Positions 5,454 through 63,782 of a stretch of DNA of 64,000 nt are shown here, one piece after another (positions within the stretch are counted from its first letter, which is position 1; each line of letters begins with the position of its first letter). The stretch is taken from the IMG/VR virus record IMGVR_UViG_2609459792_000007; one strand, given 5' to 3'. Position numbers and translations under genes: made by a program. The DNA is from a virus (Duplodnaviria; Heunggongvirae; Uroviricota; Caudoviricetes). Below the pieces are notes generated by a model. The model did no database searches. It was not told the DNA's origin and worked only from the letters and a program-made list of their open reading frames with translations.

Positions 5454-5546
5454 TGGTAGAAAAAAATATTTATATCGGTAAAAATAAGTAGGTACTTACT
5501 TAATGGTGGGCAAGGATAGCCCACCAAATCAAGGAGCATATTCAAC

Positions 5547-10637: not shown

Positions 10638-10868
10638 ATGAAAAGATTATTTCTAACAATAGCTGTTGTTCTCTCTCTTACTGGCTGTCAGAAATTGCCG
10701 ACACCCATATGTTATGGTGAGGCTATCATTGGTGGACAGGAGACAGTCATACCTATATATGCTGTTAAAAAGGTTAACGGCTATACCTTATACAAAGCGG
10801 GTAGCATCTATAACTGGCGATGGGTTGGAGTAGGTGCTTTCTCATCAGTGCGTTGCAATGCTGAATGA
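10638..10868 (+). CDS. small lipoprotein
   Basis: 76 aa; N-terminus MKRLFLTIAVVLSLTGCQ is a signal peptide with lipobox L-T-G-C. Confidence 0.55.
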   Translation: MKRLFLTIAVVLSLTGCQKLPTPICYGEAIIGGQETVIPIYAVKKVNGYTLYKAGSIYNWRWVGVGAFSSVRCNAE

Positions 10869-10937
10869 TAAGTAAGTACACACCTACAACAAAAGGGTGA
10901 AATGTGATATAAATCCGCCATCCCGATTTGACTTTTC

Positions 10938-15871: not shown

Positions 15872-15978
15872 TCTTTTAAAAGACACCACCAGAACAACTC
15901 CCTTCCGTTTCCACTTCCAAAAACTGCCACCAGTCGCTATCATCCGCTCATTGTGATAAGTAAGTAACTACCTACCAG

Positions 15979-22902: not shown

Positions 22903-23681
22903 AAATACAATGATAAGTATTTACTTACTTATCTTATATGTATAAGATGACTTTGTTTTCGTTGAGACGCGACTGTTTGAACTTAAATACAAGTGCAAAC
23001 GAAGAAGTCTATCTGGCAGTAGCCTAATAAGCCAAACACCAGCGAGGTCAGTTTCCAGCCTCGTTACCGAAATGGGACACACTGAGCGAGTGTGATTGCA
23101 GAACGCAGGAGGGAACATTCATGTTCCCTCCGATGAAGTAACAGAATGGGCGGTTGGTATATTTTCAACTCCATATGACTCCCGGATTCTTAGCCACTGA
23201 CCGCCCATTCTGTTACGTCATTTTGTTCAATTATGTCGTTTATACTGGGTTAAAAAGCGGCGACGTAGCCCGGCTGGTATGGTCAGCCAGCACACAACGT
23301 TGAGGCCATTACATTTTTATCAATTCTAAGGTTCTATTCACAGAGATACCGGCGAGCGTTGATATGTAACATGTTGGGCAAACATTCAATCGGAGTAGTG
23401 GCCTCAACGTTGTGAAAATAGGATAGTTGTGTAGGTTTAACCACTGTTGCCATTGGTACCTGTTTTCACAACAAATGATTCCATACATCACATTGTATAA
23501 ATTACAAAGTAGGTGCTGTCCTCAGAAACATCATCTACTTAAATAATTTGCCTTCTACTATTGAGCGAAGTCGAAAGCGTCTGGCACTAACGAAAAGTGC
23601 AAGTAGCGGTGCGTTTCCTGGCAGAAACTAACACCGCCGCGATTGGCACTGTTGAGTAATAAATACTGGCAGTGCTGAATT

Positions 23682-23756
23682 GATGGTGTAGCTCAGCGGT
23701 AGAGCAGTTGGCTGTTAACCAACTGGTCGGTGGTTCGAATCCACCCACCATCGCCA
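23682..23756 (+). tRNA. tRNA-Asn (GTT)
   Basis: Cloverleaf read by hand: acceptor GATGGTG/CACCATC, D-arm GCTC-AGCGGTA-GAGC, anticodon loop CTGTTAA, T-arm GGTGG-TTCGAAT-CCACC, CCA encoded. Confidence 0.85.
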
Positions 23757-23761
23757 ATTTA

Positions 23762-23848
23762 GGGGAGTTAGTCCGTAGAGGTAGCGGGGTAGACTGTAAA
23801 TCTACTGTCATGGAGACTCGGGTGGTTCGACTCCATCACTCCCCACCA
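23762..23848 (+). tRNA. tRNA-Tyr (GTA), long variable arm
   Basis: Acceptor GGGGAGT/ACTCCCC, anticodon stem-loop GTAGA-CTGTAAA-TCTAC, long variable arm, TTCGA T-loop, CCA encoded; D-arm pairing atypical. Confidence 0.7.
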
Positions 23849-23852
23849 AATT

Positions 23853-23928
23853 GCCGGTTTAGCTCAGTTGGTAGAGCGCCTGCCTTGTAAGCAGGATGTC
23901 AGCGGTTCGAGTCCGTTAACCGGCACCA
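23853..23928 (+). tRNA. tRNA-Thr (TGT)
   Basis: Acceptor GCCGGTT/AACCGGC, D-arm GCTC-AGTTGGTA-GAGC, anticodon loop CTTGTAA, T-loop TTCGAGT, CCA encoded. Confidence 0.85.
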
Positions 23929-29419: not shown

Positions 29420-29514
29420 TTAAAACAGCCTTAATGATAAGTAACTACTTACCATAGTTAATGGTATATTTATATAAGAACTTGAACGCTCATTAGAGAA
29501 CAAAGGAAAAGCGC

Positions 29515-38539: not shown

Positions 38540-38590
38540 TATATAAGTACTTACTTATCATTTTCACATAACAACCACATAGGAAAACAC

Positions 38591-47059: not shown

Positions 47060-47313
47060 CCCTCCAGATCGTATATTGGCGTAGATAGAATCTACGCCCC
47101 CTCAAAATAGCTCTCATAGCGTTCTACAGTGATCCTGTCTTATTTTTAGTCATACAGACAAGCAAAGTTGCGCCACGATAAATAGGTATATACTTACTTA
47201 TAAATTTTGTATATTAAGGCGCTCGTTTCATTCCTAACATACCGTTATGCATAGTTGTTTACCTCCTCATTGCTCTTAGAATTTGTATCAAAATAACCAC
47301 AAAGGAAAAACAC

Positions 47314-61389: not shown

Positions 61390-61449
61390 GATTGCCAGAC
61401 ATAAAATCAAATGCAAAAATAGGTATTTACTTACCTATCGAGAAAGAAG

Positions 61450-62204: not shown

Positions 62205-62459
62205 ATGAATCACTTTAAGGAAACTAACATGTCATACCCGACTAATGTCGTTGCGCTCGTAGAGAGCGATTTTCTGGCCCAGGCCCGTGAAATGATGAAA
62301 GATCGCGAGCAGGCTTTCAACTTGTACGAATGGGCAATTAAGTGCTTGCATCTTGGGGAGCATCGCGAACTTGTTGAACAGCTTTTAGGTGAGTTGATCA
62401 ACGAGGTGTTTGCCTTGAATGTTCAACTACATGGTCGAGAAAATAATCAATCGAAATGA
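62205..62459 (+). CDS. hypothetical protein
   Basis: 84-aa ORF; no motif recognised. Confidence 0.45.
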   Translation: MNHFKETNMSYPTNVVALVESDFLAQAREMMKDREQAFNLYEWAIKCLHLGEHRELVEQLLGELINEVFALNVQLHGRENNQSK

Positions 62460-63043
62460 TAGATAAGTACAAACTATTCATAAAGTGAATTGTAAGTGCT
62501 AAGATCTGATAGTTTCCAGTCGTAGACTGGAGACTCGACCTGATGGGTGGGGGTAAGCGTCACTGGCGTCAGGTTTAAAAAAGCTCACTACCAGCGTAGA
62601 ACCGGTGCCGTTTAGGTGTCGGGGAAGGGGGAACCAAAGTGAGCGGAGACAAGGGTCACTTTATGATTGTCGAGTCTGGGGTGTTTCGAGAGGTTGAATC
62701 CAGTACTCCCCTTCATAAAGTGTGGGAAGATCTCGGTTCTGGGGTGCTGTCATCCATAACTTCCCAAGTCTAAGCTGGCAGTAGACTTAGGCCATAACTT
62801 TTCAGGTTATGAAACGACCAGGTTGGTGAGGGATTTTTATACTCACCTCCCTGGGAGAGTATTACCTGAAAAGACAACCTCTCACTTCGTTCGAGGTGAA
62901 CTTCACTCACTTCGTTCGTTCAGTTCAGGTTTATAAAAACCTGTTCTGGGAAGTAATTTGTTTATTTTAATAATTATTAACACGCACGCGTGTGCGCACG
63001 CGCGAGGAAAAAAATCGGCGCGGCGCTTGATTCAGGAGTTTAT

Positions 63044-63634
63044 ATGACGACGAAGACACCAGCCCGATCGCAAGAAAAAACTCGCAAAAAAGCCAAAAAC
63101 AAAACTTCTCCCCGCACCAATTCCACAACGCCTGTCGTAGAGTTCAATCCCCAGCTTAAAACCGTGAAAATCTTCAGTGATGGCTCTTGCCTTAAAAATC
63201 CGGGTGGCCCGGGCGGTTACGGTATAGTTCTCCAGTATCGTGGTGAGGAACGCGAGTTCTCAGATGGTTTTCATAGCACCACCAATAACCGCATGGAGAT
63301 GATGGGGGCACTTATCGGGCTGGAGCGTTTGAAATATCCATGCAACGTTATTTTGCACTCTGATAGCCAGTATCTGAAAAACGGCATGACACTGTGGATG
63401 AAATGGTGGAAACGCAATGGATGGATGACTTCTGACAAAAAACCGGTAAAGAATGTTGATCTGTGGAAGCGTCTGGATGAGGCCGCAAGTCGACATAATG
63501 TTCGCTGGAAGTGGGTTAAAGGCCACGCCGGGCATCGTGAAAATGAAATATGTGATCGACTCGCGAAGATCGCAGCTTTTTCCGCAGCAGATATGCCTCA
63601 CAAGAAAGATATTGGTTTTGTTTATAACAAATAG
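63044..63634 (+). CDS. rnhA: ribonuclease HI
   Basis: [69 protein letters not shown] parallels E. coli RnhA as recalled; start placed at ATG 63044 (RBS CAGGAG) rather than ORF-track 62990, which lies in a GC palindrome. Confidence 0.85.
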
Positions 63635-63782
63635 TAAGTAAGTCTTTACCTATCATTTTAAATCATGTATCTTATCGGCGTCAGGATGACAATGTGTCGG
63701 TAAGACACAGTTCCAGGATGGAACGAGAAAGGCGGCTGGCAATCGCCAGCCGCAACTCTTTCTGACACTGGATGGAGTCCAC

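Follow-up and report, generated by a model that had tools for sequence, protein, structure and literature searches.

An apparently undescribed large structured RNA encoded upstream of rnhA in SSU5/pHCM2-type phage-plasmids

The lytic origin of the phage-plasmid P1 is fired from a promoter under repressor control, and the origin (ori) of phage lambda lies within gene O. For the SSU5/pHCM2-like phage-plasmids, which are common in clinical Enterobacteriaceae and bear resistance genes, the switch from plasmid to lytic replication has to our knowledge not been defined. New classes of large structured RNA are rare and have repeatedly opened new biochemistry. R-loop origins that are processed by RNase H include that of mitochondria, where RNase H1 acts on the LSP-CSBII primer (PMC6317783). 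Here we describe a locus in a 64,000-nt stretch of DNA (the window) from the Caudoviricetes record IMGVR_UViG_2609459792_000007 of IMG/VR. A gap at 62460-63043, bounded by an open reading frame (ORF) of 76 aa (62229-62459) and the RNase HI gene rnhA (ATG at 63044), carries no annotation in all of the records examined. Based on sequence comparison, bp 62512-62955 of the + strand are very probably a stand-alone gene for a large structured non-coding RNA (ncRNA) of approximately 445 nt. This RNA is well supported and apparently undescribed.

Evidence for a structured RNA on the + strand

From IMG/VR, PLSDB and GTDB genomes, 64 distinct copies of the element were obtained and reduced to 21 representatives for alignment, including a Cronobacter clade that is approximately 60-68% identical. 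RNAalifold analysis of the + strand of these 21 copies predicted 100 pairs in 17 helices, with compensatory double changes at 30 of them. For the 104 pairs proposed here (also in 17 helices), 99.2% of the alignment cells are paired and 31 pairs are compensatory. Controls in which the partners were slid by 1-3 columns had only 32-49% of cells paired and 1-5 compensatory pairs, and none of 500 shuffles reached the observed pairing values. Because the Cronobacter clade (four sequences), the one diverged clade, supplies most of the double changes, the number of independent events is lower than the cell counts. Helices that also vary within the enteric clades include the 5' hairpin, helices 2, 3, 7, 8 and 12 and the GGUUU/AAACC hairpin described below.

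The energies and the types of change assign this structure to the + strand and to the RNA level. The consensus (alifold) energy is -94 for the + strand versus -54 for the - strand, and the minimum free energies (MFE) are -168.7 and -138.3 kcal/mol, respectively, with a z-score of -4.7 for the + strand MFE against shuffles. G.U pairs make up 12.7% of the paired cells, and many of the changes are AU/GU/GC interchanges that are workable on the + strand only. When aligned with the window, the core of the element (62535-62955) is 95.5% identical in Enterobacter, 95.3% in Salmonella pHCM2 and 89.8% in Klebsiella, above the 72-80% identity of the flanking small ORF and rnhA. A BLAST search with the gap alone gave the same result, the core being better conserved than the coding flanks. 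As the RNA is more conserved than the surrounding proteins, it is a strong candidate for a central function.

A preliminary description of this DNA, made from the letters of the window, had noted that the gap holds no ORF over 60 aa. Indeed, none lies wholly inside it, with maxima of 46 aa (- strand) and 44 aa (+ strand). Among the copies, the longest ORF varies in frame, strand and length (46-75 aa), and the variable columns per codon phase number 82/79/70. A hidden small protein or pseudogene was ruled out by the lack of a conserved frame and of periodicity. The same description had named a protein gene disrupted by frameshifts in this sequence as the finding that would speak against a structured RNA; no frame-consistent ORF remnant and no codon periodicity were present in the copies. 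Its call for a comparison with relatives was borne out by a region that is conserved, more so than the neighboring genes. Its suggestion of a structured ncRNA is strongly backed by this combination: the helices covary, the G.U pairs are strand-specific, the flanking genes are less conserved and no coding signal is seen.

The RNA does not resemble known families. ARAGORN predicted no tRNA or tmRNA genes in 62300-63200. When the whole window was scanned at gathering thresholds with Rfam 15 (4227 models, including RNAI, C4, GOLLD, ROOL, RNase P, tmRNA, 6S, group I/II introns and ribozymes), only three tRNAs were identified (23682-23925). These are adjacent genes on the + strand with Rfam scores of 75.5, 43.5 and 74.9 bits. 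A permissive scan of 62300-63200 had a best match of 21 bits versus a threshold of 56. The Rfam/Infernal check that had been proposed thus matched no Rfam 15 family, fitting an undescribed RNA, and no description was found in Rfam 15 or in the searchable literature (SSU5/pHCM2 ncRNA, lytic origin and the motif sequence).

The RNA as a whole (62512-62955, + strand) starts with a 5'-terminal hairpin (62512-62534; inverted repeat I7) that begins at the predicted +1 and has a clade-specific but complementary stem (CCAG/CUGG, CCGG/CCGG, UCGA/UCGA or GGCAG/CUGCC). Helix 2 is a G-rich hairpin (62538-62574) in which GAUGGGUGGGGG pairs with CGUCACUGGCGUC; its 13 pairs are 100% paired and four are compensatory. 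Helices 3-4 (62584-62643) enclose the G-rich loop GGGGAAGGGGGAACC, and helix 3 has three compensatory pairs. The central multi-helix domain (62652-62867) is closed by 62652-62654/62865-62867 and contains helices at 62657-62722, 62676-62703, 62723-62766, 62742-62755, 62768-62792, 62793-62811 and 62818-62854. Each of its helices of at least 5 pairs has compensatory changes, with 96-100% pairing. One of these had been described as the hairpin AAGTCTA/TAGACTT. Both arms are present (62766-62772 and 62782-62788), but the register backed by evolution is shifted: 62768-62777 pairs with 62782-62792 in a helix of 10 bp with one bulge, four compensatory pairs and 100% pairing.

Following the central domain is a hairpin module, CCUC-UCACUNCGUUC-GAGG (62878-62896; inverted repeat I14), which is the most conserved block of the RNA. 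It is invariant except for the central loop position (N), where enterics have T and Cronobacter has A, G or C. A second hairpin (UGAACU/AGUUCA, 62897-62927) has three compensatory pairs, and its loop repeats UCACUUCGUUC (repeat D3), a motif found nowhere else in approximately 120 kb of phage-plasmid. Repeat D3 had been recognized previously as a direct repeat; the 13-nt sequence CTCACTTCGTTCG does occur in two exact copies, at 62881-62893 and 62906-62918, each shifted rightward by 4 nt from the position first assigned to it. By an arithmetic estimate, approximately 0.002 exact 13-nt repeat pairs are expected by chance in 570 nt. The RNA ends with a small hairpin (GGUUU/AAACC) and the conserved tail UUCUGGGAAGUAA (62928-62956). 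The stem of this hairpin varies yet pairs (GGG/CCC in L013, GGGA/UCCU in L033 and GGUUU/AAACC in Cronobacter). Strong conservation stops near 62955, and the 3' end was placed by conservation only.

Candidate pairings between distant parts of the RNA were also identified. GGAACC at 62630-62635 may form a pseudoknot with GGUUCU at 62735-62740 (100% paired, one compensatory pair and wobble changes). A candidate pairing of 62532-62539 with 62669-62676 is consistent with the alignment and has wobble changes only, while one of the loop at 62799-62804 with 62868-62873 is compensatory in Cronobacter. In addition, the invariant AGAGGUUG (62689-62696) is complementary to CAACCUCU (62875-62882), the 5' flank and strand of the hairpin module. 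A pairing of 62756-62766 with 62947-62957 (I11) was discarded, as the Cronobacter clade does not preserve it.

Between the RNA and rnhA are three further segments. The AT-rich tract (62957-62980) has A or T at 23 of 24 bases and is 64-77% identical among close clades. The next 24 nt (62981-63004; inverted repeat I5) had been described as a GC-rich palindrome; the position is correct, but the sequence is really a tract in which pyrimidines and purines alternate perfectly and short palindromes overlap. This tract is Z-DNA-prone by composition, and its length varies from approximately 9 to 24 nt among relatives in the style of a slippage-prone simple repeat. It is followed by AGGAAAAAAATCG (63005-63017), which marks the right-hand limit of what is retained along with the element upon exchange of the downstream gene. 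This segment includes an A-run at 63007-63013, approximately 500 nt from the predicted start at 62512, after which rnhA follows. In L008, L091 and L097, homology stops directly after AAAAAAATCG.

Genomic setting and distribution of the element

Escherichia phages CMS-2020a, Cyrano and PhiR41_1 match the surroundings of the element at 98-99.7% identity. The window also matches approximately 690 "non-mobilizable" IncFIB plasmids of approximately 110 kb each from Escherichia, Klebsiella, Enterobacter, Salmonella, Citrobacter and Cronobacter, and these are SSU5/pHCM2-type phage-plasmids. In PLSDB, 687 plasmids carry the element and 686 carry the element with its flanks, making it a core component of this phage-plasmid type. 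Among complete E. coli genomes, 232 of 5426 (4.3%) have the element. A Buttiauxella gaviniae contig (L091:4834-5164) carries a copy without the 5' third, which is replaced up to approximately 62636 by unrelated coding-like sequence; this is probably a rearranged or defective element.

The gap is set in a rightward-transcribed block of replication and nucleotide metabolism genes, comprising NrdAB, ThyA, dihydrofolate reductase (DHFR), clamp-loader-like ATPase, epsilon-like exonuclease, Dam, 76-aa ORF, gap and RNase HI. A plasmid-type RepA replicon, the only replicon shown in annotated records, is 19 kb from the gap. SSU5 has its own DnaB-like helicase, primase, ligase, polymerase and single-stranded DNA-binding protein (SSB). 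Beyond the window, another plasmid of the same type (NZ_CP020118.1; L276:2594-5885) carries host-like apbC and metG (methionine-tRNA ligase) genes.

The 76-aa ORF (+ strand) is always directly 5' of the element. Its three-helix product matches phrog_5343 only, with no Pfam match, and belongs to a narrow family of 29 clusters that are all from Enterobacterales. An AlphaFold2 model (pLDDT 78.6) showed no fold match in a search of the PDB (best E-value: 5) and no recognizable RNA-binding fold. A Rop-like role was rejected because the model has three helices and no significant PDB match.

Immediately downstream of this ORF is an operator-like half palindrome, ATAAGTACAAAC (62463-62474), which is degenerate in the window; Salmonella/Enterobacter copies carry the perfect palindrome GGTAAGTACTTACC at this site. 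The motif RTAAGTANNTAC has 44 (overlapping) matches in the window versus 4.8 expected, mostly ahead of operons, and the operator motif is also found right after rnhA (63638-63649). The consensus of the recurring palindrome is approximately ATAAGTAnnTACTTAT, and it frequently overlaps a -35-like TTTACC. Sites include 5484-5503, 10868-10883, 15956-15975, 22913-22932, 29437-29452, 38543-38558, 47182-47201 and 61419-61434, in addition to that at 62463-62474. From its sequence and recurrence, this palindrome looks like the operator set of a scattered-operator repressor in the style of P1 C1.

Adjacent to the operator is a candidate sigma-70 promoter (62477-62505, + strand), with a -35 element TTCATA (62477-62482), a 17-nt spacer and an extended -10 element TGcTAAGAT (62497-62505). 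Transcription is predicted to start near 62511-62512. The -10-like TGnTAnnAT is kept in the E. coli, Salmonella/Enterobacter and Cronobacter clades, while Klebsiella has TAGAAT without TG, and this element is preserved amid surroundings that are only 45-58% identical. As a consensus promoter scan did not list the candidate, the promoter is assigned by inference.

On the other side of the element, rnhA (63044-63634, + strand) likely starts at ATG 63044 behind the Shine-Dalgarno sequence AGGAG (63034-63038). Its only Pfam match is RNase_H (6.8e-44, residues 40-178), and the protein has a basic N-terminal extension of approximately 40 aa. In public records, the RNase H coding sequence (CDS; 648-765 nt) starts further upstream, at GTG or other codons inside the 3' flank of the RNA. 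The SSU5 record NC_018843, for example, has RNase H at 79147-79911, and the window stretch concerned is 62990-63043. The annotation can thus be corrected in several records that extend the rnhA start into the element. No promoter was seen between the RNA and rnhA in the window, and a consensus scan identified no intrinsic terminator in or after the element. Because no intrinsic terminator follows it in the window, the RNA is probably on the same transcript as rnhA and is possibly processed from it.

The preliminary description had considered the gap as a long leader of rnhA. This part of the description was not supported: although rnhA is downstream in most copies of both RNA types (the second type is described below), it is replaced in others while the element remains intact. 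A Salmonella Tennessee plasmid (L008) and Kluyvera sichuanensis (L097) both carry an element that is complete as far as AAAAAAATCG, with a GmrSD-type restriction gene after it. Cronobacter copies (L004) have a Tad2-like gene at this position, equipped with an operator and a promoter of its own. The syntenic type-2 RNA has been retained even at loci with a convergent next gene (L273 and L274). rnhA is therefore the usual but dispensable downstream neighbor of the RNA. The downstream slot itself is a gene-exchange hotspot for RNase HI (window 63044-63634), GmrSD-type (L008:2366-3483), Tad2-like (Thoeris anti-defense; L004:3607-3918) and convergent hypothetical (L273:1487-1933) genes. Its breakpoint is directly after the alternating pyrimidine-purine tract and the A-run.

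When the small ORF was used as a tblastn query, 728 plasmids were identified, 39 of them with below 60% identity. In a Klebsiella pCAV1099-111-like group (30 plasmids), the synteny of Dam, small ORF, gap and RNase H is preserved. The gap of this group has the same layout of operator palindrome, -35/-10, covarying 5' hairpin and a body of approximately 480 nt, and encodes a second predicted RNA type with 145 predicted pairs, 17 of them compensatory, in six sequences (L269:2726-3270, L270 and L272-L275). An nhmmer comparison of the type-1 and type-2 RNAs revealed no similarity and no shared motifs, and the type-2 RNA has no Rfam match at E-values up to 5. On a Moellerella wisconsensis plasmid (L271:2837-4148), the small ORF has its most distant relative, at 45% identity, followed by an extra small ORF and approximately 970 nt of unannotated DNA.

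The hairpin module and the possible function of the RNA

The hairpin module also occurs outside these phage-plasmids. For searches, it was defined as 18 exactly specified bases with a free central N and the CCUC/GAGG stem (window 62878-62896), and an exclusion pattern was used to avoid SSU5-like flanks. As DNA (CCTC-TCACTNCGTTC-GAGG), the module was found in 52 other IMG/VR contigs and at least 120 metagenome loci (L100-L228) from various environments. Among the matches listed, there are 58 distinct immediate contexts; by our estimate, chance would account for only a few matches. The lower stems of many contexts are different in sequence yet complementary. The module occurs in both orientations relative to transcription across the metagenomes. 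Some copies cap long hairpins that are followed by terminators (L126, L132, L156 and L186), and one (L167) is in a 46-nt tandem array. Rfam scans of 26 module loci revealed nothing relevant, and no GenBank phages resembling the module contigs L130 and L101 were found. When complete E. coli genomes were searched with the hairpin, 232 of 234 matches were on plasmids and two were chromosomal. Since nearly all of these matches are plasmid-borne, the module is not a core chromosomal sequence, and a host origin was rejected.

Nine of the contexts are phage replication-initiator/organizer genes, in which the module occupies the sense strand of the inter-domain linker. These represent about five unrelated gene families, the exact number depending on PHROG grouping: Pfam Phage_rep_O (L100/L104), the O-like phrog_391 (L130/L203), another O-like family (L179), phrog_1408/16167 (L111 and L027/L185) and a DnaD-like family (L165/L195). 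At the one locus checked (L100), the next gene encodes a DnaC-like loader. Iterons precede the module in the initiator genes, as does a purine-rich tract in several, so that the linker modules match the position of the lambda ori. Three or more repeats were found upstream of the module in 8/46 contexts versus downstream in 1/46. The abundant L101-type context is intergenic, yet iteron-rich and AT-rich. Within genes, the amino acid encoded at N varies (T/S/A/P) but the other nucleotides are fixed, and the module is also found in non-coding DNA, which argues that selection acts on the nucleic acid. Judged from these contexts, the module is a widespread element whose commonest recognizable setting in viral contigs is an origin. 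A 19-nt module common to the ori position of unrelated initiator families provides a testable handle on a possibly general origin component.

We tentatively favor a role of the RNA in initiating phage (lytic) DNA replication, as an origin or pre-primer RNA, and regard this as possible rather than probable. The preliminary description had raised a second origin at which RNase H processes an RNA primer or R-loop; the support for such an origin is indirect and comes from the module shared with origin regions of initiator genes, the neighboring replication genes and the likely co-transcription with rnhA in most copies. Early expression from a repressor-controlled promoter is inferred from the sequence: because the candidate promoter adjoins the recurrent operator, derepression would switch on the RNA together with the early replication genes. 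Once the repressor leaves the operator, a transcript would run rightward through the site and could mark or open the origin as an R-loop or pre-primer. The fold might favor a persistent RNA:DNA hybrid, as in ColE1 RNA II, and/or serve as a scaffold that presents the two 3' hairpins to replisome proteins such as the phage helicase/primase. RNase H, of the phage or the host, would then trim the RNA to a primer. This role is favored because the element is located in a replication module, shares an origin module that follows a short purine tract, keeps its AT-rich tract and A-run and is probably co-transcribed with rnhA (in both RNA types), and because P1 provides a precedent. A broader version is an unlikely one: SSU5-type phage-plasmids would start lytic replication without an initiator protein, the 445-nt RNA acting as the origin-specific initiator via an R-loop/primer and two UCACUNCGUUC hairpins, and the same hairpin would be an unrecognized strand-specific component of many lambda-type origins across bacterial phyla.

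A number of observations weigh against a replication role. Only two-copy repeats, and thus no iterons, are present in 62400-63100, and no O-like, Rep or other initiator gene adjoins the element. No - strand promoter is predicted inside 62530-62960, and there is no RNAI match. An origin would have the AT-rich/GC/A-run segment as its DNA part, yet this segment is just 64-77% conserved, and both the promoter and the RNA 3' end are predictions. GC skew is monotonic over approximately 120 kb of reconstructed plasmid, with no inflection at the element, although it is uninformative for an origin search because the genes are co-oriented. The type-2 RNA is without the hairpin module. Approximately 80% of the metagenomic module contexts, among the matches listed, are not visibly origin-like, and four modules directly adjoin the 3' end of a tRNA gene encoded on the other strand (L149, L205, L225 and L228). 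Finally, the near-invariant loops suggest specific partners, which a mere primer would not need.

A different possibility, in our view nearly as likely as a replication role, is that the RNA is a trans-acting structured RNA unrelated to replication: part of a ribonucleoprotein (RNP), a sponge or decoy for a host or defense protein, or a self-assembling RNA similar to other large RNAs associated with phages. In that case, the hairpin would serve generally for protein binding or structure, as fits the many module contexts that are not origin-like. The element is a discrete unit with its own predicted promoter and 5' hairpin, its loops are very highly conserved as well as its stems, and it stays put while defense and anti-defense genes (GmrSD and Tad2-like) are swapped in the downstream slot. 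A different RNA in the same slot of the sister clade is what would be expected of fast-evolving specificity determinants. However, no partner or target was found, as there is no complementarity or match of at least 12 nt in either orientation elsewhere in the 64-kb window; the RNA has no Rfam family, and the small protein encoded upstream is without a recognizable RNA-binding fold. Such a role would also leave the recurrence of the module at initiator-gene linkers unexplained.

The other explanations have less in their favor. That the element is a cis-acting leader or processing element for the expression or stability of rnhA and later genes on one transcript is very improbable. Co-transcription is likely, with neither promoter nor terminator between the RNA and rnhA in the window, and rnhA is next in most copies, but the element is unchanged where the next gene is of the GmrSD type, is Tad2-like with its own promoter or (type 2) is convergent. 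A length of 445 nt and approximately 17 helices are far beyond known leaders, and conservation drops in the last 90 nt ahead of the start codon, where translational control would act. Very improbable, too, is a fold used as single-stranded DNA, either as an initiation signal or as a lagging-strand origin, for which the sso of rolling-circle plasmids and the complementary-strand origins of G4 and M13 would be the models. In its favor, the structure is strand-specific, and the module occurs at origins and in both orientations across metagenomes. Against it, the G.U(T) pairs, some of them invariant, are at a frequency typical of RNA and would be destabilizing in DNA; the strand that folds is the sense strand of the predicted transcript, with a conserved candidate promoter and a 5'-terminal hairpin ahead of it; and the phage's own primase and helicase serve general priming. 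The idea that a gene has decayed here, or that the gap is a neutral spacer whose hairpins arose by chance, has nothing for it beyond the missing annotation in all records. Conservation above that of the neighboring genes, the 31 compensatory pairs, the presence of the element in essentially every relative and the lack of any ORF remnant or codon periodicity refute it.

Comparison with known systems

Several described classes can be compared with the element. Retrons consist of msr-msd and a reverse transcriptase, while no reverse transcriptase is present among the annotated neighbors here and the downstream protein is Pfam RNase_H only. The C4-type antisense RNAs of phage immunity (P1/P7 c4, P4 CI and N15 CB) are likewise phage-plasmid regulatory RNAs upstream of early genes, and SSU5 has an anti-repressor gene approximately 1.3 kb downstream of the element. 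However, the C4-type RNAs are approximately 80-200 nt in length, and neither an Rfam C4 match nor a complementary target in the window was found for the RNA described here. GOLLD and ROOL (also OLE and raiA) are similar in size class, in their many covarying helices and pseudoknots, in their location on phages or plasmids and in having an unknown role. The present RNA differs from them in having no Rfam match and in a distribution limited to phage-plasmids of Enterobacterales.

Among origins, those of the iteron type have at least three direct repeats and a cognate initiator gene, neither of which is found here, although an AT-rich tract (62957-62980) is present. Lambda-type origins consist of iterons, a purine-rich AT tract and an inverted repeat. 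The module occurs at the position of this repeat in O-like/DnaD-like genes, and in the RNA of the window it comes after GAAAAGACAA. The inverted repeat of lambda itself has a different sequence, and the module of the window is embedded in a 445-nt folded RNA without iterons or an initiator gene. The P1 lytic replicon (oriL in repL, with C1-controlled P53) belongs to a phage-plasmid with separate plasmid and lytic replication and, like the element, is a transcription unit behind a scattered-operator repressor site within early genes. Unlike the element, which has no ORF and encodes only a folded RNA, the oriL of P1 is part of a protein-coding gene and depends on RepL, and the repressor and operator proposed here are deduced from motif recurrence alone.

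The closest parallels in mechanism would be with origins that use a transcript. At R-loop origins such as T4 ori(uvsY)/ori(34) and mitochondrial LSP-CSBII, a promoter-driven transcript has early G-clusters (here GGGUGGGGG and GGGGAAGGGGG), RNase H is nearby and an initiator protein is not required. Those origins need no elaborate conserved fold, whereas the G-runs of the present RNA are largely base-paired in the consensus. ColE1/pMB1 RNA II is a structured sense transcript of approximately 500 nt that extends from its promoter to an A-run beside a GC-rich segment, as does the transcript predicted here. In the ColE1 system, RNase H cuts the RNA:DNA hybrid of the pre-primer (approximately 500-600 nt) at the origin and Pol I extends it; an RNase H is encoded directly downstream of the present element, and in both cases the folding of the whole RNA is under selection. 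On the other hand, the phage-plasmid that carries the element is 110 kb in size and comes with a RepA replicon of its own, some copies do without rnhA, and no promoter for an antisense RNA I (in ColE1, approximately 108 nt and transcribed from within the 5' part of the pre-primer), no RNAI match and no sequence similarity were found. Although the absence of RNA I and of sequence similarity places it outside the ColE1 group, the element would, by analogy, be most like ColE1 RNA II or an R-loop origin in its working.

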